From NCBI GenBank assembly GCA_049519175.1, contig JBEKQZ010000001.1:107311-171310 (forward strand): a DNA stretch of 64,000 nt, written 5' to 3'. Both the position numbers and the translations under genes were made by a program. Shown here piece by piece: positions 32,420 to 42,963 of this stretch. How positions within the stretch are numbered: the first letter of the stretch is position 1; each line of letters begins with the position of its first letter. The DNA is from Candidatus Levyibacteriota bacterium (lineage in GTDB: Bacteria > Patescibacteriota > Microgenomatia > Levybacterales > UBA12049). The notes under the pieces are model-generated. The model was not told where the DNA came from and ran no database searches. It was given only the letters and a program-made list of their open reading frames with translations.

Positions 32420-33325
32420 TTGACCTCGATTTGCTATGATTTAGCTATGCCCGACAAAATAGGAAATCCGCAATATAAACTTCTGGCCGAAAAATGGTCC
32501 AGCCGCCATCAAAATCTTCAATCTGAAATTTTTGAAAAACACAAAGATGCGTTTAAATGGTTGGTGGATAATTCAAAACAATTAGCTGTTGGTTCGCTTG
32601 CCAGCGTATTTTTGCTGGCATCGCCGGCCGCGGCAAAAATTCCCAACCTTTTATCAACTACCAGTGCGCAAGTTAGTCAAACAATCGACCGCAAAGTTTT
32701 TCTGGTTTACGATTTAAGAAATGTTTTGCCAAACGACGTTAGGCCGTTAACCCCCGACGAAGAAAAAAACGTCAGTGAAGTTTTAACCCGCGATTTTGGC
32801 ATTCCTGTTTCGGCGGAGTTAGACGGGAAAAGACTCAATACAACCTATGGAATAATTGGTCAGGAGCAGCATCTACCGCGTTATCCCGGCGATAATATTT
32901 TCAATCACTTTGAGACTCAAGATGATGCCGGAAAATATTGGTCTTACGGGATGACGCCGGGGCTTGGCGCCTGGGGCTATTTTACCGATTCGGCGGCAAC
33001 TTTAACGCAAACAGATATCGACCGGGAAAAATATTACATTGCCGTGCAAACTTTTCTAGCGCCGGGTTTCGATACAAATCCCAAAGAATATACCGATTTT
33101 TTCAAATACCGAAAAATGTTGGTGGTTAATCCGCAAAACGGCAAAGCGGTGGTCGCCGATATTGCCGACGCCGGACCGTCTCCGTGGACCGGAAAGCAAT
33201 TAGGCGGTTCGCCGGAAGTGATGAGTTATCTGGAGAGATTTGACGGAGAGCAAAGAGGTCCGGTCTTATATTTTTTTATCGATGATCCAAATGATACAAT
33301 TCCTTTGGGCCCGGTTTCTTACTAA
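32420..33325 (+). CDS. hypothetical secreted/membrane-anchored protein; possible RlpA-like double-psi beta-barrel at the C-terminus
   Basis: Hydrophobic anchor (LAVGSLASVFLLASPAAA). C-terminal MLVVNPQNGKAVVADIADAGPSPWTGKQLGGSPEVMSYL resembles RlpA/3D-type DPBB blocks, but the match is weak. Confidence 0.45.
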   Translation: MTSICYDLAMPDKIGNPQYKLLAEKWSSRHQNLQSEIFEKHKDAFKWLVDNSKQLAVGSLASVFLLASPAAAKIPNLLSTTSAQVSQTIDRKVFLVYDLRNVLPNDVRPLTPDEEKNVSEVLTRDFGIPVSAELDGKRLNTTYGIIGQEQHLPRYPGDNIFNHFETQDDAGKYWSYGMTPGLGAWGYFTDSAATLTQTDIDREKYYIAVQTFLAPGFDTNPKEYTDFFKYRKMLVVNPQNGKAVVADIADAGPSPWTGKQLGGSPEVMSYLERFDGEQRGPVLYFFIDDPNDTIPLGPVSY

Positions 33326-33658: not shown

Positions 33659-34432
33659 CTATCTGATCACAATCAAAAAGAAGAGAATTGCCGCAATCAC
33701 CCGATAAACTCCAAAAATTATAAAATTGTTGTGTTGGACATAGCGCAAGAAGAGTTTAACGGAAACTAATGCCACTACAAACGCGCCGAAAAAGCCAACT
33801 GCAAGTATCATCCACTCGCTGGGCGAATAAGAAAAATTGGTTCTAATTAAATCCAGAGAGGTTGCCGCCAGCATCGTCGGAACGGCTAAGATGAAGGAAA
33901 ATTCGGCGGCCGCTTTACGCTTGGTCCCCAAAAATAGAGCACCGATAATGGTTGCGGCCGAGCGGGAAACTCCGGGAATTACCGCAATCGATTGGAAAAG
34001 TCCGATGACAAAAGCCTTGGGCAAACTCATCTTCGCGATATTATCGATATGGTATTCCTTTTCTTTATAAATCAGCTCAAGCGCTATCAAAGCAACACCG
34101 CCGACCAAAAGTGAAATTAAAGTAATGTATAAATTGCCGAGTAAATAAGTTTTAATAAATTTAAAAAGTATCAATCCGATAATTCCGGTCGGAATAAAGG
34201 CGACGATAATTCTTTTCCAGACCGCAACGCTTTTAAACAGAGTATTCCAATATAAAACCACGATGGCCAGTATCGCACCAAGCTGAATAATAATTTCAAA
34301 ATCTTTGACAAAACTAGTTTGGGCGACTTTTAAAATGTCGGCGGCCAAAATCAGGTGCCCGGTGGAGGAAATTGGTAGAAATTCCGAAATGCCTTCAACA
34401 ATAGAAAGAATTAATGCCTGCAGAATGTTCAT
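33659..34432 (-). CDS. uppP: undecaprenyl-diphosphatase
   Basis: BacA/UppP signature (VEGISEFLPISSTGHLIL, PGVSRSAATI). 257 aa, about 8 TM helices. Confidence 0.9.
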   Translation of the reverse strand: MNILQALILSIVEGISEFLPISSTGHLILAADILKVAQTSFVKDFEIIIQLGAILAIVVLYWNTLFKSVAVWKRIIVAFIPTGIIGLILFKFIKTYLLGNLYITLISLLVGGVALIALELIYKEKEYHIDNIAKMSLPKAFVIGLFQSIAVIPGVSRSAATIIGALFLGTKRKAAAEFSFILAVPTMLAATSLDLIRTNFSYSPSEWMILAVGFFGAFVVALVSVKLFLRYVQHNNFIIFGVYRVIAAILFFLIVIR

Positions 34433-35481: not shown

Positions 35482-36486
35482 ATGGAAGACGTTAGACAAA
35501 GAATTGCCAAAGTTCTAGAAAAATTCAATCTTGACGAAAAAAGAAAGCAAATCCGGGAAATTGAAGCACAGAGTTTGCATCCGGATTTTTGGAAAGACCA
35601 CCAAAACGCGACTTTAAAAATGAAAGAGTTGTCGATGCTTCAGAATCAAGTCGCAAAAATAGAAAAACTGTCTGAGCTTTCGGCAGCGGGTCAGTTTGAC
35701 GAAGCGGAAAAGTTGTTAGATGAATTGGAAGTTCTACTGTATTTTACCGGCGCTTATGACAGTGGGTCGGCAATTATGGAATTACACGCCGGACAAGGTG
35801 GAGTGGAAGCGATGGATTGGACCAACATGCTTTACCGTATGTATACCAGGTTTTTTGACAAAAAAGGTTGGGCGCACGAAGTGATTGACGAAACTCCGGG
35901 CGAAGAAGCGGGTCTAAAAAGTGTAACCATCCAAGTCAGCGGTGAATATGCGTATGGATTTTTAAAAGGCGAAGCGGGTGTGCACCGGTTGGTCCGTCAG
36001 TCACCGTTTAATGCCGATAATTTAAGACAAACTTCATTTGCCCTGGTCGAAGTGCTGCCCGAAATTGAGGAAAGCGCGGAAATTGAGATTAAAGATGAAG
36101 ATTTGGATTGGGATTTTTACCGAAGCGGCGGACACGGCGGGCAAAATGTCAACAAAGTTTCAACGGCAGTTCGTTTAAAGCATATTCCCACCGGAATTGT
36201 GGTTACGGCGCAAAGTCAGCGTTATCAAAACCAAAACCGCGAATACGCGCTTAAAATTTTACGTGCCAAGTTGTGGTTTTTGCAAGAAGAAGAGCGAAAA
36301 AAGGATGAAGCAAAATTAAAAGGCGGATATAAAACTCCGGGTTGGGGCAACCAAATCCGTTCTTACGTTTTGCATCCTTACAAAATGGTCAAGGACCTTC
36401 GCACAAACTTCGAAACTGCCAACGCCGAAGCAGTTCTTAATGGCGATTTAGATGAATTTATCGACGAAGAGTTAAGAAAATTATAG
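35482..36486 (+). CDS. prfB: peptide chain release factor 2 (no programmed frameshift)
   Basis: SPF tripeptide (RQSPFNADN) and GGQ motif (SGGHGGQNVNKVSTAVRL). Continuous ORF; CTT-GAC at the position where frameshifting prfB genes carry CTT-TGA-C. Confidence 0.9.
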   Translation: MEDVRQRIAKVLEKFNLDEKRKQIREIEAQSLHPDFWKDHQNATLKMKELSMLQNQVAKIEKLSELSAAGQFDEAEKLLDELEVLLYFTGAYDSGSAIMELHAGQGGVEAMDWTNMLYRMYTRFFDKKGWAHEVIDETPGEEAGLKSVTIQVSGEYAYGFLKGEAGVHRLVRQSPFNADNLRQTSFALVEVLPEIEESAEIEIKDEDLDWDFYRSGGHGGQNVNKVSTAVRLKHIPTGIVVTAQSQRYQNQNREYALKILRAKLWFLQEEERKKDEAKLKGGYKTPGWGNQIRSYVLHPYKMVKDLRTNFETANAEAVLNGDLDEFIDEELRKL

Positions 36487-36548: not shown

Positions 36549-37046
36549 ATGGATAAAAACATCGACCAGGTTCAAAAACCAAAACCAAATCCAGTTCAAG
36601 CACAACCATTAATCCGCAATTTTAACGCAGACAGTCTTAAAAGCGCCTTCACGCCTAAAGTTCTCGCTATTTTGCTTGGCGTCGTAGTAGTGGGAGTTAT
36701 CAGCGGTTTTCTACTTTCTCAAGTCGGCACGCTTTCAACCAAAAATATCAAAAACGGCACAGTTACCAGTGGCTCATCGGTTGCCGTAGGAACAATTATC
36801 GGTTCAAACGATACTACAACTTTTAAAGATACGGCTCAAGGCACGCTTAAGGAAGGAGGCATTGACGGCGAGGGAGCTTACCATCTGGTGCGACCGGGCG
36901 GAGACAGTCAAAACGTTTATCTTACATCCTCATCGGTGGACTTATCGCAATTTGTGGGTAGAAATATTAAAGTTTGGGGTCAAACTCAAGCAGCCCAGCA
37001 TGCGGGTTGGCTAATGGATGTGGGAAGAATTCAGATTCTGCAATGA
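36549..37046 (+). CDS. hypothetical membrane-anchored extracellular protein
   Basis: One TM helix (VLAILLGVVVVGVISGFLL) followed by a Ser/Thr/Gly-rich domain. Immediately upstream of ftsE. Confidence 0.45.
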   Translation: MDKNIDQVQKPKPNPVQAQPLIRNFNADSLKSAFTPKVLAILLGVVVVGVISGFLLSQVGTLSTKNIKNGTVTSGSSVAVGTIIGSNDTTTFKDTAQGTLKEGGIDGEGAYHLVRPGGDSQNVYLTSSSVDLSQFVGRNIKVWGQTQAAQHAGWLMDVGRIQILQ

Positions 37047-37798
37047 TAAAGCTTGACAAAGTCTCTAAAAAATTTGGCACCGGAGTTTTTGGATTGTCGG
37101 ATGTGTCTTTGAACATTGAAAAAGGGGAATTTGTTTTTTTGGTTGGCTCGACGGGCGCCGGAAAAACGACCATCTTCAGATTGTTAATCCGTGACACTTT
37201 GCCAACGGAAGGAAGCATTTTAGTTAACGGATGGGATGTTGTCCACCTGCCAAAAAATAAACTTCCAACACTTCGAAAAAATGTTGGTGTCGTTTTCCAA
37301 GATTTAAAATTACTTTTGGATAGAACAACTTTTGAGAATATTATGTTGCCATTGGAAGTGGCCGGAGCCAGTGACGAGGAAGCGACAAAAATAGTTGAAT
37401 CGGTTTTGGGACTAGTCGGACTGACCGAACATAAAGATAAATTTCCGATTCAACTTTCGGGCGGAGAATTGCAAAAGGTAGCGCTTGCCAGGGCGTTGGT
37501 TTTATCGCCGGAAATATTGTTGGCGGATGAGCCAACCGGTAATTTGGACGCCGCAACGTCTTGGGAAATCGTCAAACTGTTGTCGGACATTAACAAAAGA
37601 GGGACAACGGTGGTAATGGCAACGCACAATTTAGATGTAATTAAAAGCTTAGGAAAAAGAGTGATTCGTATCGAAAAAGGAAAAATAGTTGAAGAGGGGA
37701 AAAGTTCAGGTAAGCATAAAGATAAGAAAGATCATCAAGAAGTGGAGAAGGAGGAACCCTCCTCCGTCAAGACTTCGGAAGGGCAAGAAAAAGAATGA
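37043..37798 (+). CDS. ftsE: cell division ATP-binding protein FtsE (with K/E-rich C-terminal tail)
   Basis: Walker A GSTGAGKTT, ABC signature LSGGELQKV, Walker B LLADEPT. ATG 37043 is chosen; the ORF is open from 36974. Confidence 0.9.
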   Translation: MIKLDKVSKKFGTGVFGLSDVSLNIEKGEFVFLVGSTGAGKTTIFRLLIRDTLPTEGSILVNGWDVVHLPKNKLPTLRKNVGVVFQDLKLLLDRTTFENIMLPLEVAGASDEEATKIVESVLGLVGLTEHKDKFPIQLSGGELQKVALARALVLSPEILLADEPTGNLDAATSWEIVKLLSDINKRGTTVVMATHNLDVIKSLGKRVIRIEKGKIVEEGKSSGKHKDKKDHQEVEKEEPSSVKTSEGQEKE

Positions 37799-38661
37799 GT
37801 TTTACAAAAACTACTTGGAAAAATATCAGAAGGTCACCTTATCAAGCTTTGGCGGCAATTCTAATCATGACTTTAACCTTTCTGGCGATTTCGTTTTTTA
37901 CTTTTCTTTTAGTTGGTTCCTCAAAAGTCATTAACTATTTTGAATCAAAACCGCAAGTCACCGCTTTTTTCCGAAATGACGCCAGCCAAAGCGATATCAA
38001 TAAATTGGAAAACCAACTGCGGGCAACGGGCAAAATTGCTTCGATAAAATTTGTTTCCCAAAACGAAGCACTCAAGATATACAGACAACAAAATGCAAAC
38101 GACCCCCTACTGTTGGATTTGGTCACTGCCGATGTTCTACCTTCTTCATTTGAAATCTCCACCGTGCAAATCGAAGATATGGGAACAATTTCCAATATGC
38201 TTGATAAATCCCCAATTGTTTCGGATGTCATTTACCAAAAAGATGTTGTTTCGACTTTAACCACCTGGACGAGCGCGATCAAAAAAATAGGCATCGTGCT
38301 GGTGGTGCTATTGTCTTTGGTTTCAATTTTTATTATGGCGACAATTGTGGGTATTAAAATTTCCCAGAAAAAAGAAGATATCGAAATAATGAAGCTAATT
38401 GGTGCGACCAATTGGTATATTCGCTGGCCGTTTTTAACCGAAGGAATTGTGTATGGAATTATCGGCGCGGTGGTCGGATGGGCTATCGCTACGGCGGGAC
38501 TTTTATACACGACTCCGTTTTTAGAGTCATTTCTAAAAGGGATTCCGGTTTTGCCGGCATCATACAGCGATTTATTAATTCTCTTGGGATTGGAAATAGG
38601 ATTTGCCGTTTTCCTGGGGGCAGTGTCAAGTTTCTTGGCGGTTTTGCGATATTCAAACTAG
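37795..38661 (+). CDS. ftsX: cell division permease-like protein FtsX
   Basis: Overlaps ftsE (ATGA). Four TM helices with a large first extracellular loop. Conserved MKLIGATNWYIRWPFLTEG. Confidence 0.85.
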   Translation: MSFTKTTWKNIRRSPYQALAAILIMTLTFLAISFFTFLLVGSSKVINYFESKPQVTAFFRNDASQSDINKLENQLRATGKIASIKFVSQNEALKIYRQQNANDPLLLDLVTADVLPSSFEISTVQIEDMGTISNMLDKSPIVSDVIYQKDVVSTLTTWTSAIKKIGIVLVVLLSLVSIFIMATIVGIKISQKKEDIEIMKLIGATNWYIRWPFLTEGIVYGIIGAVVGWAIATAGLLYTTPFLESFLKGIPVLPASYSDLLILLGLEIGFAVFLGAVSSFLAVLRYSN

Positions 38662-38691
38662 CTTTTATCAATTTTTAGAAATGTATGATTT

Positions 38692-39891
38692 ATGAAGTTT
38701 GGAATAAAGAAAATAGTCCTTTTGCTTTTCGTAACGGTTCTTCTATGGTTTAGCGCCGGAATTGTTCGTTCTCGGGCTGATACATCAGGTTGCGATACCC
38801 CGCAAGAACAAGATTTGTGTAATAAAATAAACGCCGCAAGAGCTGAGACACAAACATATTCCTCGCAAATTGCATTAATCGGCAATCAGATACAATTAAC
38901 AGAATATCAAATTGAGGCGACGCAAGCACAAATAACCAGTGTCACTTTGGATATCGATACTGCCACTAAAAAAATATCCAGTTTGCAAGGAACATTAGAT
39001 ACAACAATAACAGTGCTTTTAAATAGAATTGTGGCAACTTATGAAGTTGGAACAATTCAGCCAATCCAAATCTTGTTAACATCCAATACCGCTTCGGATT
39101 TTTTTACCAGACTTAACTATTTAAAGCTGGCACAAGCGCACGATAAACAATTGGTTTACGATACCCAACAAGCGAAAACCGATTATGCAAATCAAAAAAA
39201 TATTTTTGAAGACAAAAAAAAACAATTAGCAGATTTACAACAACAGTTGCAAACGCAAACCGACCAACTGAATCAGGAAAAACAAGTTCAACAACAACTT
39301 TTAGAAACCACAGAAGCGCAACTTGCTCAGTATCAAACGGAATTATCAGCTTTGCAAAACTTTGCCCGTTCTCGAGTTGGTCCTGGTGGGCAAAGCATTC
39401 CGCATCAGGATTTGTCTGATAGCTGGGGCAAATATTATAACCAGCGTGATGCAAACTGGGGTAATAATTATATTGGTTTATCGAATATGCAGATATGGGA
39501 TGTCGGTTGTTTATTAACCTCTTACGCGATGGTGGTAACGCATTATGGTGGATCTGTAACACCTGCGGATGTGGCGGCAAATGTAGGAAATTTTGCAGGG
39601 GGAAGTGCATATTTTAATTTACCTGGTCCTTCTGCTAATGGGCATTCGGCTACTGACGTTTCTATGCCGTCACTTGACGATCTAAAAAATGATCTCAACG
39701 CCGGGGATTCGGTCATTGCAGGATTATCTTATGACGGTGGTCCAATCGCCGACCATTGGGTAGTGCTTAGATCTGTCAATGCCGATGGCACTTTTATGAT
39801 TAATGATCCTTTATATCAAGGAGCAATGAATGTGCCGCTCAACGATAATTATGCTGGGCTGGCAATTGTCGAAGCCAGGATTTATAATTAA
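38692..39891 (+). CDS. PcsB/EnvC-like secreted protein: N-terminal coiled coil plus C-terminal papain-like (C39-like/CHAP-like) cysteine peptidase
   Basis: Signal peptide. About 200-aa Q-rich coiled coil (QQQLQTQTDQLNQEKQVQQQLLETTEAQLAQYQTELSALQ). C-terminal domain with Cys motif WDVGCLLTSYAMVVTHYGG and His motif DHWVVLRSVNADGTFMINDP. Directly downstream of ftsEX. Confidence 0.6.
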   Translation: MKFGIKKIVLLLFVTVLLWFSAGIVRSRADTSGCDTPQEQDLCNKINAARAETQTYSSQIALIGNQIQLTEYQIEATQAQITSVTLDIDTATKKISSLQGTLDTTITVLLNRIVATYEVGTIQPIQILLTSNTASDFFTRLNYLKLAQAHDKQLVYDTQQAKTDYANQKNIFEDKKKQLADLQQQLQTQTDQLNQEKQVQQQLLETTEAQLAQYQTELSALQNFARSRVGPGGQSIPHQDLSDSWGKYYNQRDANWGNNYIGLSNMQIWDVGCLLTSYAMVVTHYGGSVTPADVAANVGNFAGGSAYFNLPGPSANGHSATDVSMPSLDDLKNDLNAGDSVIAGLSYDGGPIADHWVVLRSVNADGTFMINDPLYQGAMNVPLNDNYAGLAIVEARIYN

Positions 39892-40032
39892 AATAAGATA
39901 AAAAGAATTGCCCTTACTGTTTGTCTTTTTTGGTTTTTAAGCCTGCTTTGCCCGGGAAAGACCTCTGCGGCCGGTTTCACTTTAGCGTCAGACCAAACAT
40001 CCATCAATTCCAATGAGGAATTCGATATAAAT

Positions 40033-40710
40033 GTGCAATTCTCAATCAGCGCTGCAAATGGCACCGTTTATTACTTGCGCGGAGTTTTCTATCAAACTGC
40101 CGGTAGCTATTGTGGCTACACTTGGAATGGAAATAATTGGTATAATGGTCCTTATTCCGTAAATAACGGGTGGCAGCAATTGCTTGCGGTCACAGTCAAT
40201 CAAAGTAGCTGGTCAGGGCAGTTAAAAGCAAAAATTGATCCATCTGATGGTAATTGTCAAAATAGCGGTAATTATTATTTTAAAGTTCAAAGATATACTG
40301 TAGGAGGAAGTAGCAATTTTGATGATCAAAATAGTTTAAGCGTAAATATTTCTATTCCAACCCCAACCCCCACGCCTGCTCCGACAGATACTCCAACGCC
40401 AATGCCCACTCAAACTCCAACGCCTAAGCCTATTGCGGCGCCCACTTCCAAACCAACCCAAAAACCTTCACCCACAATTACGGAAGATCTTATTGCGACA
40501 GATGCGGGTGTTTTGGGGGACAGCAGCGGAAGCACAGAAGTTCAAACGCCAACTCCAAAACCAAAAGAAATAAAAATAGCTTCGGATACCGGCAGTAATT
40601 TATTACCAGAAATTCTAATCCTTATCGGCATTGTTTTTCTGATAGCTTGTGCTATAGTAGTTTCTTACCCATACCTTAAAAATTTTAGAAAGAAAAATAA
40701 TGATGAATAA
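40033..40710 (+). CDS. cell-surface protein with Pro/Thr-rich linker and C-terminal membrane anchor; the ORF probably extends upstream to about 39898
   Basis: GTG start at 40033 per the ORF track. The same frame is open back to the preceding stop and encodes a signal-peptide-like KIKRIALTVCLFWFLSLLCPGKTSAAGF. PTPTPTPAPTDTPTPMPTQTPTPKP linker; C-terminal LPEILILIGIVFLIACAIVV + RKKNN. Confidence 0.5.
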   Translation: MQFSISAANGTVYYLRGVFYQTAGSYCGYTWNGNNWYNGPYSVNNGWQQLLAVTVNQSSWSGQLKAKIDPSDGNCQNSGNYYFKVQRYTVGGSSNFDDQNSLSVNISIPTPTPTPAPTDTPTPMPTQTPTPKPIAAPTSKPTQKPSPTITEDLIATDAGVLGDSSGSTEVQTPTPKPKEIKIASDTGSNLLPEILILIGIVFLIACAIVVSYPYLKNFRKKNNDE

Positions 40711-41713: not shown

Positions 41714-42034
41714 ATGGGCAAAGTTTTAAAGATTGACACCTCCGATAATCAGAAAATAACGATTGAACTTGAATTTAACGGAAAAAAAGAAAAATTGGTT
41801 GAAGACTCAACATTTCTAAGATCCGAAGCGACTTTGCCGGCGATTGATAAGCTACTCAAGCAAAATAATCTAGCTATTAAAGAAGTTGATCAGATTAAAG
41901 TGAGCAAAGGGCCAGGCTCATTTACGGGGTTAAGAGTTGGAGTGGCGATTGCTAATGCGTTAGCGTTTTTATTAAAAATCCCCGTTAATCATAAAAAAGT
42001 TGGCGAATTGGAAGAACCAGTATATAATAAATAG
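41714..42034 (+). CDS. tsaB: truncated TsaB (YeaZ) N-terminal-domain-only protein
   Basis: 106 aa carrying the YeaZ/TsaB signature KGPGSFTGLRVGVAIANALAF. Lacks the C-terminal half of canonical TsaB. Confidence 0.65.
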   Translation: MGKVLKIDTSDNQKITIELEFNGKKEKLVEDSTFLRSEATLPAIDKLLKQNNLAIKEVDQIKVSKGPGSFTGLRVGVAIANALAFLLKIPVNHKKVGELEEPVYNK

Positions 42035-42039
42035 TAGGT

Positions 42040-42963
42040 ATGATTAATTTTCTGCGCCATCTTTTTCTACCGAGGGAAACAAACAATTACAGGCCGGGAC
42101 TTCTGCACCACAAAATCTTATTCAGCCTAATCTTATTCTTCGTTTCTGCGGGAATTTTGACATCTGTTGTCAGAACCAATTTCCCTGCGGTTTTAGGCCT
42201 ATCGGCGAATATTCCAACACAGCAACTTTTAATTTTAACCAATCAACAAAGACAAGATAATAATCTGCCCGCTCTGACCGATAATTCCGAGCTCGACCAG
42301 GCGGCTGCCAATAAAGCGGCGGATATGCTTAGTAAAAATTATTGGGCACATGATGCGCCGGACGGCACCACTCCGTGGACGTTTATCAAAGCGGCGGGAT
42401 ACAATTATGTTTATGCCGGCGAAAATCTGGCGCGGGGATTTAATAGCGCTTCGGACGTAGTAAACGCCTGGATGAATAGTCCTGAACACAGACAAAATAT
42501 TTTGTCATCCAACTATCAAAATGTTGGCTTTGCGGTAGCCACGGGAAACTTAAGCGGTGAGGATACAATTCTAGTGGTAGAAATGCTTGGCAGTACCAGT
42601 TTGGGTGCTCCCGTTGCTTCGGGCAACAATAATCCTCCGGTCGTTGCTGTTGCCCCAGGGTCTCCGGCGGTCAATAATACTAAAGCGCCTGCTGCTCCGG
42701 CGCAAACACCCATTGCTCAAATTAATAGTTCCAACTTATTGGGAGTTTCTTCAGTTATAAAGCCTCTGATCAATAGTCACACATTTGTCTCTTTGTCGGC
42801 CGGAGTAATTCTCTCTTTATTCATTTTTGTTCTAATTCTAGACATGGTAATAATTGAACGGAAAAAGATTGTCCGCTTTGTTGGTCACAATTTGGACCAT
42901 GTATTGTTCTTGGGAGCGATGTTTGCAATTGTAATAATTCTTTTGAAAGGAGCAATTATTTAA
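42040..42963 (+). CDS. CAP (SCP/PR-1-like) domain protein with N- and C-terminal TM helices
   Basis: CAP motifs (LTNQQRQDNNLPAL, NYWAHDAPDG, GENLARGF, NAWMNSPEHRQNIL). Confidence 0.75.
   Translation: MINFLRHLFLPRETNNYRPGLLHHKILFSLILFFVSAGILTSVVRTNFPAVLGLSANIPTQQLLILTNQQRQDNNLPALTDNSELDQAAANKAADMLSKNYWAHDAPDGTTPWTFIKAAGYNYVYAGENLARGFNSASDVVNAWMNSPEHRQNILSSNYQNVGFAVATGNLSGEDTILVVEMLGSTSLGAPVASGNNNPPVVAVAPGSPAVNNTKAPAAPAQTPIAQINSSNLLGVSSVIKPLINSHTFVSLSAGVILSLFIFVLILDMVIIERKKIVRFVGHNLDHVLFLGAMFAIVIILLKGAII

Follow-up and report, generated by a model that had tools for sequence, protein, structure and literature searches.

A secreted coiled-coil protein with a C39-like cysteine peptidase domain as a putative FtsEX-governed cell-wall hydrolase of Microgenomatia

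Gene content of the locus

Among the steps of bacterial division, the cleavage of the wall under control of FtsEX is central and has been studied well. Here, we describe a locus within a stretch of 64,000 nucleotides (nt) from a Candidatus Levyibacteriota bacterium, an uncultured and ultrasmall member of the candidate phyla radiation (CPR, Patescibacteria) (contig JBEKQZ010000001.1; hereafter the window), in which ftsE and ftsX are followed by a gene for a secreted protein of 399 amino acids (aa). This protein—termed CC-C39 in the following—joins an N-terminal coiled coil to a C-terminal cysteine peptidase domain of the Peptidase_C39_2 type. On the plus strand, the order of genes is prfB, a small gene for a membrane protein, ftsE, ftsX, the CC-C39 gene, a gene for a proline- and threonine-rich (PT-rich) protein, and tsaE (Table 1). 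The original prediction, which had been made from the bare sequence and had placed a secreted coiled-coil protein behind ftsE–ftsX, holds in all its elements, and both FtsE and FtsX are matched by their family models.

The genes are tightly packed: ATGA overlaps join the small gene to ftsE as well as ftsE to ftsX, and only 30 nt separate ftsX from the CC-C39 gene. As promoter and terminator scans of the locus gave no signal exceeding shuffled background, the operon call rests on this packing and on conservation. Within the best explanation taken as a whole, the small gene, ftsE, ftsX, and the CC-C39 gene are co-directional and probably encode one envelope machine. The CC-C39 sequence is 100% identical to a database cluster, which bears the automatic names 'MAG: C39 family peptidase [Candidatus Levyibacteriota bacterium]' at NCBI and 'peptidoglycan hydrolase CwlO-like protein' at JGI.

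Table 1 Features of the ftsEX locus and other features of the window; positions are those of the window
Feature	Position	Strand	Basis or remark
301-aa open reading frame	32420–33325	+	no Pfam family
UppP/BacA	33659–34432
prfB (release factor 2)	35482–36486	+	Pfam PCRF and RF-1; context only, conserved upstream neighbour
Small bitopic membrane protein, 165 aa	36549–37046	+	stop overlaps ftsE ATG
ftsE, ATP-binding cassette (ABC) ATPase of FtsEX, 251 aa	37043–37798	+	TIGR02673, Pfam ABC_tran
C-terminal extension of FtsE	37700–37798	+	past the ABC domain
ftsX, membrane subunit of FtsEX	37795–38661	+	Pfam FtsX_ECD, FtsX
CC-C39, secreted coiled coil and C39_2 cysteine peptidase, 399 aa	38692–39891	+	putative FtsEX-controlled wall hydrolase
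CC-C39 predicted signal peptide, aa 1–29	38692–38778	+	sequence reading, model helix 5–24
CC-C39 EnvC/PcsB-type coiled-coil domain	38800–39378	+	AlphaFold2 model, family profile, Foldseek
CC-C39 helix α3	39313–39378	+	conservation profile, model helix
CC-C39 papain-fold catalytic domain, Peptidase_C39_2 type	39409–39888	+
CC-C39 Gln251	39442–39444
CC-C39 Cys273	39508–39510
CC-C39 His355	39754–39756
CC-C39 Asp372	39805–39807
PT-rich secreted, C-terminally anchored protein	39898–40710	+	open frame 39895–40710
TsaD-family match	41714–42034	+	106-aa protein covering profile positions 30–84 of 264
CAP-domain (PF00188) protein	42040–42963	+	C-terminal membrane segment

The catalytic domain of CC-C39

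The C-terminal domain matches Pfam Peptidase_C39_2 (PF13529) with 35.6 bits against a gathering score of 24, whereby aa 248–373 cover profile positions 5–142 of 143. The same family is precomputed for nearly all CC-C39 homologues, with some distant relatives below threshold. Peptidase C39 proper (PF03412) reaches 16.2 bits against a cutoff of 22, and CC-C39 has no Pfam match to CHAP (PF05257) or NlpC/P60 (PF00877). From the expectation of a C39-like or CHAP-like peptidase, the first half thus stands, whereas the CHAP-like half finds no family match. C39 proper is an N-terminal domain of ABC exporters that cleaves double-glycine leaders; in CC-C39, by contrast, the domain sits at the C-terminus behind a coiled coil, and the secreted protein contains no transporter part. 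Judged by these family models, CC-C39 lies outside the CHAP, NlpC/P60, EnvC, and C39-proper families.

The Cys and His motifs that had been pointed out earlier start at aa 269 and aa 354, respectively, and their conservation in homologues could be established. Among 95 full-length representatives of clusters at ≤50% identity, Gln251, Gly272-Cys273, Pro291, His355, and Asp372-Pro373 are 100% conserved; the invariance of Gln251, Cys273, His355, and Asp372 was counted over 91–95 such representatives. These four follow the papain-type order of oxyanion Gln, Cys, His, and Asp, and both its position and its invariance suggest that Gln251 serves as the oxyanion residue. Because the set is invariant in this order, the domain is, as far as its sequence tells, a catalytically competent clan-CA peptidase of the C39_2 sub-family and not a degenerate activator domain.

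The predicted papain-like fold is borne out by the PF13529 match and by the structural neighbours of the domain, whose model has a predicted local distance difference test score (pLDDT) of 94.2. The wall cross-link peptidase PeiR shares the top rank among these neighbours; further ones are Ufm1-specific proteases, an uncharacterised cyanobacterial protein, streptopain, and cathepsin-type papain-fold enzymes. None of the 60 structural neighbours listed for the domain is described as a CHAP or NlpC/P60 chain. In the viral structure library, a tail tape-measure lytic domain (2e-7) and a phi29 gp13-like 'morphogenesis protein 1 hydrolase' come closest, next to cyanophage multidomain 'lysozymes' and a mycobacteriophage Lysin A. 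For the latter type of enzyme, Payne and Hatfull matched the cysteine-protease domain of LysA N5 to the structure 3ERV by HHpred (PMC3314691), and Peptidase_C39_2 is mentioned in three phage-lysin survey papers. In PHROGs, the catalytic domain has no meaningful match.

The coiled-coil half of CC-C39

At its N-terminus, CC-C39 carries a putative Sec-type signal peptide composed of a KK n-region, a hydrophobic core, and Ala29 at the likely cleavage site, a residue conserved in 87% of the 95 representatives. The AlphaFold2 model was built with 82 homologues and has a mean pLDDT of 84.9 and a predicted template modelling score of 0.69. It shows a helix at aa 5–24 and a low-confidence linker, followed by helices α1 (aa 56–119) and α2 (aa 134–205), which form a long hairpin with its tip at aa 120–133, helix α3 (aa 208–229), and an α/β domain from ~240 onward. 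The coiled coil spans ~193 aa (aa 37–229) with 17% Gln, in good agreement with the Gln-rich segment of about 200 aa described before.

In the PDB, a single CC-C39 sequence finds nothing but spurious coiled-coil matches, which made a family profile necessary. This profile comprises 91 diverse members that are 20–54% identical to the window protein and was searched against all PDB sequences. It recovers EnvC of E. coli (2.5e-18), EnvC of V. cholerae (4.2e-16), EnvC in 6TPI (2.1e-14), PcsB (3.5e-9 over aa 1–236), and chain 8i6o_E, a 'membrane-bound metallopeptidase' (2.9e-8), and the alignments of EnvC, PcsB, and 8i6o_E are collinear over ~210–230 residues. Lower matches are 8aud, annotated as 'cell wall-associated hydrolases (invasion-associated proteins)' (3.8e-5), RipA (1.9e-4), and RipC (0.012), while generic coiled coils such as DotF and tropomyosin reach just 3e-6 to 1e-3 with the same profile. 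On the level of the fold, a Foldseek search of the full model against 350,542 PDB chains places PcsB and V. cholerae FtsEX-EnvC on top; EnvC with the FtsX periplasmic domain, the N-terminal domain of RipA, and M. tuberculosis FtsEX-RipC come next. Pfam CC_PcsB matches the window protein weakly and below threshold at aa 107–164, and relatives attain 24.5–26.2 bits against a gathering score of 27. The NCBIfam model of EnvC (NF008644) gives 4.7e-7, that is, 29.1 bits against a cutoff of 270, with only the coiled coil (aa 53–223) aligned. By profile and model, the N-terminal half of CC-C39 can be regarded as a homologue of the EnvC/PcsB coiled-coil domain, in line with the type that had been assigned to it.

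Conservation within the coiled-coil region peaks at aa 196–230, with Thr207, Tyr214, and Phe224 conserved in or near α3. EnvC and PcsB possess restraining elements (PMC11627006), and this analogy suggests α3 as a candidate restraining, that is autoinhibitory, element of CC-C39. The hairpin tip, flanked by Y117 and Y143, is the segment that CC-C39 has in common with Pfam CC_PcsB and with the coiled-coil–M23 and coiled-coil–CHAP paralogues described below. In RipC, it is the inter-helix loop together with the adjoining helices that contacts the extracellular domains of FtsX (PMC11627006).

FtsE and FtsX

FtsE matches NCBIfam TIGR02673 with 266.7 bits (cutoff 264.85), aligned over 1–214 from the ATG at 37043, and Pfam ABC_tran at 2.1e-33. 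Its ATPase motifs are complete—Walker A at aa 35, the LSGGE signature at aa 138, Walker B at aa 159, and the H-loop at aa 193. The gene start given earlier, 36974, corresponds to the longest possible open reading frame and has to be revised, as the true start is almost certainly the ATG at 37043 in the overlap with the stop of the small gene. Past the ABC domain, FtsE bears an unusual and highly charged C-terminal extension of ~35 aa, GKSSGKHKDKKDHQEVEKEEPSSVKTSEGQEKE.

FtsX exceeds the gathering scores of both Pfam FtsX_ECD (5e-16) and Pfam FtsX (5.8e-15). The NCBIfam models FtsX_Gpos (182.5 bits) and FtsX_Gneg (181.2 bits) align over the full length, under their cutoffs of 225 and 255. The extracellular domain comprises aa 54–145, between the first and the second transmembrane helix.

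Distribution and synteny

Searched on its own, the catalytic domain yields 509 cluster representatives at E≤1e-3 among 1.84 billion, most of them ~400 aa long and with the domain at the C-terminus. A genome scan with the motif YYNQRD[AST]xW, derived from a 12-sequence domain alignment and applied to one genome per species, found a CC-C39 relative in at least 343 species genomes, mostly from Microgenomatia-type members of the CPR and, in addition, from a Dormibacterota-type clade. The following locus counts rest on the best 80 of the 343 genomes, 77 of which have enough upstream sequence. All 80 genes encode an N-terminal region ahead of the domain, 172–322 aa in length; the shortest (L047) is cut by a contig end, and the others measure 223–322 aa.

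Most loci have a guanine–cytosine (GC) content of ~39% and labels including Levyi-, Roizman-, Woese-, Shapiro-, Collier-, and Daviesbacteria or Microgenomates, and a second group of 64–72% GC is labelled Dormibacterota, Chloroflexi, 'Acidiferrales', or 'Actinomycetes'. As a side observation, L011, L015, L017, L021, L025, L043, and many other loci show the Levyibacteria-type gene order, yet their record titles read 'uncultured Gammaproteobacteria' or 'Pseudomonadales'. The isolate name in one of these records contains 'PATE', and a further locus with this gene order bears the title 'Candidatus Eisenbacteria'. The directly linked loci average ~39% GC. These record titles look wrong or like placeholders as taxonomic labels.

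Synteny with ftsEX, which the original prediction had implied, is found in the majority of relatives: ftsX lies directly upstream of the CC-C39 gene in 63 of the 77 loci, and this arrangement reaches down to ~30–35% FtsX identity. Two loci (L036 and L075) have one extra membrane-protein gene in between, and in a single one (L076) ftsE–ftsX is located 1.2 kb downstream of the CC-C39 gene. Wherever enough sequence is available, ftsE precedes ftsX (55/55). Across loci, the genes keep the order prfB, small gene, ftsE, ftsX, CC-C39, and the downstream genes—that of the PT-rich protein and tsaE—come and go while the ftsEX block persists. The insert at L036:3690-5231, with its equivalent in L075, encodes a polytopic membrane protein of 513 aa that appears glycosyltransferase-like by eye; both are Microgenomates genomes.

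A locus with three catalytic modules

L076, a locus of 72% GC, displays three coiled-coil hydrolase genes around ftsEX within 10 kb (L076:1334-10761). These encode a coiled-coil–CHAP protein on the minus strand (CC-CHAP; PF05257, 8.5e-18), a CC-C39 protein (CC_PcsB, 24.5 bits), and, directly after ftsE and ftsX (FtsX_ECD, 2.1e-10), a coiled-coil–M23 protein (CC-M23; PF01551, 2.4e-32). In a profile comparison, CC-CHAP and CC-M23 both align to the CC-C39 family profile with ~87% probability and an E-value of ~4e-6, the common segment being the hairpin-tip region at query aa ~116–158. With the three proteins encoded side by side, this locus provides direct evidence, on the level of sequence, for related coiled-coil chassis that carry interchangeable catalytic modules. 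The slot after ftsX is occupied by CC-M23 in L076 and by CC-C39 in Microgenomatia.

The small membrane protein and neighbouring genes

The protein encoded ahead of ftsE has a cytoplasmic N-terminus, one transmembrane helix, and a conserved extracytoplasmic domain of ~85 aa. Homologues occur in 57 loci (e.g., L007:3166-3657), and the gene directly precedes ftsE in 53 of the 55 loci with enough sequence, often overlapping it. Hence, its suspected membership in the envelope module is backed by a conserved block of genes. The alignment contains 14 invariant residues and the extracytoplasmic motif FKDxAEGxLxxGGIDGEGxYHLxRPGGxSQNVYLTSSxVDL...AGWLMDVG; neither Pfam nor the PDB returned a match, a profile search included. 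The protein is probably an accessory subunit or regulator of the machine.

For the PT-rich protein downstream, the proposed tie to the same module remains loose, since a homologue follows in only part of the relatives as seen by tblastn. The protein has no Pfam family, and its C-terminus consists of a transmembrane helix and a basic tail. A signal peptide (IKRIALTVCLFWFLSLLCPGKTSAAG) results only from a start at ATA 39898 or ATT 39907, and the frame holds no ATG, GTG, or TTG ahead of 40033. The four closest relatives (L007–L010) conserve this non-canonical start region, and more distant homologues have an ATG start and a similar signal peptide. The gene thus probably starts at 39898 or 39907 and not at 40033.

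Further along the window, the TsaD-family match next to tsaE and sua5 is truncated, and short TsaD/TsaB-like lengths also appear in relatives (94–107 aa). The place of the CAP-domain protein after tsaE–sua5–tsaD is conserved in relatives.

Proposed mechanism and alternative explanations

It is proposed that CC-C39 is an FtsEX-governed cell-wall peptidase with a different catalytic module, a reading that we consider the probable one. It builds on the gene identities, the operon packing, the coiled-coil homology, the papain fold, the invariant catalytic residues, and the linkage to ftsEX. FtsE as cytoplasmic ATPase and FtsX as membrane protein with an extracellular domain would form the usual mechanotransmission complex of the division site. 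The signal peptide would export the 399-aa protein, whose hairpin tip might dock between the extracellular domains of FtsX. An inhibited state would keep the peptidase silent for as long as FtsE, by binding and hydrolysing ATP, has not moved FtsX and, with it, the coiled coil. Once released from this autoinhibition, the C39_2 domain with its Gln-Cys-His-Asp set could cut peptide or amide bonds of the wall at the division site, leading to daughter-cell separation or wall expansion. CC-C39 would in effect be a direct hydrolase like PcsB, CwlO, or RipC, in which the CHAP or NlpC/P60 module is replaced by C39_2.

Several observations weigh against this proposal. On the side of the coiled coil, the HMMER scores carry a large composition bias (68.9 bits, bias 35.4), so that the gap to generic coiled coils matters and not the absolute E-value; the Foldseek E-values of the coiled-coil matches are marginal (3.5e-3 to 3e-2); and the hairpin tip is ruled out as the conservation peak of the coiled coil, which lies around α3. 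On the side of the genome, Pfam reveals no peptidoglycan synthesis genes in the window aside from UppP/BacA, the sole gene that bears on the lipid-carrier-based wall pathway: a dcw cell-wall cluster suspected at 17–28 kb turned out to hold a solute-binding protein, metabolic enzymes, tRNA synthetases, and SecA. In 11 of the 77 loci—seven high-GC Dormibacterota-type and four CPR loci—no ftsEX is found within 6 kb, such that the linkage is not obligatory. Moreover, the whole prfB–ftsEX block is collinear within Microgenomatia, whereby the synteny may be largely inherited gene order and is supportive, not decisive. These last two points would suit a stand-alone autolysin free of FtsEX control, with a coiled coil that serves oligomerisation or wall spacing; among the 11 loci are all seven of the high-GC group (GC fraction 0.64–0.72). 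Such an autolysin is distinctly unlikely, however, given that the block is retained to 30–35% FtsX identity while downstream genes change, that start and stop codons are packed as in a single operon, and that the coiled coil is homologous specifically to FtsX-binding proteins. Also, in model organisms none of the partner genes envC, pcsB, cwlO, and ripC is linked to ftsEX, so the unlinked Dormibacterota-type copies are no argument against control by FtsEX.

The weakest link of the FtsEX-governed hydrolase is its substrate. Four of the above observations favour the wall, namely the top rank of PeiR, the lytic phage proteins among the viral structures, the match of LysA N5 to 3ERV, and the mention of Peptidase_C39_2 in phage-lysin surveys; peptidoglycan would thus be the presumed substrate. 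On the other hand, proteases proper or toxins make up many of the fold neighbours (staphopain, streptopain, CdiA-CT, and bacteriocin-processing C39), which means that the substrate could be a protein, and in the literature searched no muralytic activity has been demonstrated for any PF13529 member. In an alternative reading, CC-C39 would be a protease, secreted or tethered, that cleaves proteins or peptides such as the PT-rich neighbour or exported precursors, with a coiled coil that does no more than place the enzyme at the membrane or at FtsEX; we regard this as unlikely. An offensive enzyme, with which a CPR episymbiont opens the wall of its host or poisons other bacteria, appears very improbable: the gene is embedded in the ftsEX operon and has no immunity-like gene beside it, a chassis of the EnvC/PcsB type speaks for remodelling of the cell's own wall, and CC-C39 is also found in high-GC loci labelled Dormibacterota. 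To our knowledge, Dormibacterota are not regarded as an episymbiotic lineage. Finally, on the level of sequence the coiled coil matches EnvC best, which could speak for a catalytically inactive activator that switches on a separate amidase, as EnvC does in E. coli. This notion is scarcely tenable and was rejected, as Gln251, Cys273, His355, and Asp372 do not vary, quite unlike what a degenerate site would show.

A more far-reaching version of the hydrolase proposal would make CC-C39_2 the main FtsEX-driven division hydrolase of Microgenomatia, a whole CPR class, and of the Dormibacterota-type clade, and thereby a fourth catalytic solution after LytM, CHAP, and NlpC/P60. C39_2 would then be a genuine peptidoglycan peptidase, and the co-encoded small membrane protein would be a new factor that regulates FtsEX from the extracytoplasmic side, comparable in function to SweCD or SteAB. 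We put this forward tentatively and hold it to be rather doubtful in this full extent.

Relation to known systems and implications

A 2024 review lists EnvC, PcsB, CwlO, RipC, and RipA as partners of FtsEX, with LytM, CHAP, or NlpC/P60 modules, and the term 'C39' is absent from its text (PMC11627006). Within the literature on FtsEX or FtsX with C39, Patescibacteria, or CPR, we found no description of a CC-C39 protein; to that extent, a C39-like cutting domain on a putative FtsEX partner is a type not yet reported for this machine.

PcsB of S. pneumoniae (PDB 4CGK) comes closest in architecture: it is secreted, begins with a coiled coil in the form of a helical hairpin, and ends in a Cys-His domain that acts directly as a hydrolase, an activity predicted for CC-C39 as well. 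It is the top Foldseek match and is supported by the profile match and by the CC_PcsB match at the hairpin tip. It differs in its catalytic domain, which is CHAP instead of Peptidase_C39_2 with the Gln-Cys-His-Asp set, and in its gene, which is not known to adjoin ftsEX, whereas that of CC-C39 is part of the ftsEX operon. EnvC (E. coli and V. cholerae; FtsEX-EnvC-AmiA/B; 6TPI, 8HD0, and 8TZL) gives the best sequence match of the coiled coil, and the model helix that follows the hairpin in CC-C39 could, by analogy, act as a restraining arm. Yet the LytM (M23) domain of EnvC is degenerate, and EnvC does no more than activate amidases, whereas CC-C39 has an intact cysteine-peptidase site and no M23 domain. 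With CwlO of B. subtilis and RipC and RipA of Mycobacterium and Corynebacterium, CC-C39 shares the combination of coiled coil and C-terminal cysteine peptidase, whereby wall cutting would be the presumed function here; the coiled coils of RipA and RipC are recovered by profile as well as by fold. The mode of action proposed for CC-C39 is that of FtsEX-PcsB, FtsEX-CwlO, and FtsEX-RipC, where hydrolysis is carried out by the partner itself.

Other PF13529 proteins, such as the putative C39-like protein 3ERV of B. anthracis and LysA N5, come without an EnvC/PcsB coiled coil or a link to FtsEX, and their biochemical activity is largely uncharacterised. The pseudomurein endoisopeptidases PeiW, PeiP, and PeiR (8Z4H) are set apart as well: PeiR acts on archaeal pseudomurein, is 14% identical, and stands in another domain context with no connection to FtsEX.

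The automatic names 'CwlO-like' and 'C39 family peptidase' already hint at both halves of the protein, so this is not a new kind of system, and domain swapping on a coiled-coil chassis will not surprise specialists. What the three modules side by side near ftsEX in one genome add is to make the logic of an adaptor plus interchangeable blade explicit. The operon offers a compact set of four proteins for reconstitution, including a small membrane protein of no known family. For PF13529, a large and almost uncharacterised family, it gives a concrete and testable physiological role; and it points to how ultrasmall CPR bacteria—not yet genetically tractable in the class Microgenomatia—may split their walls.

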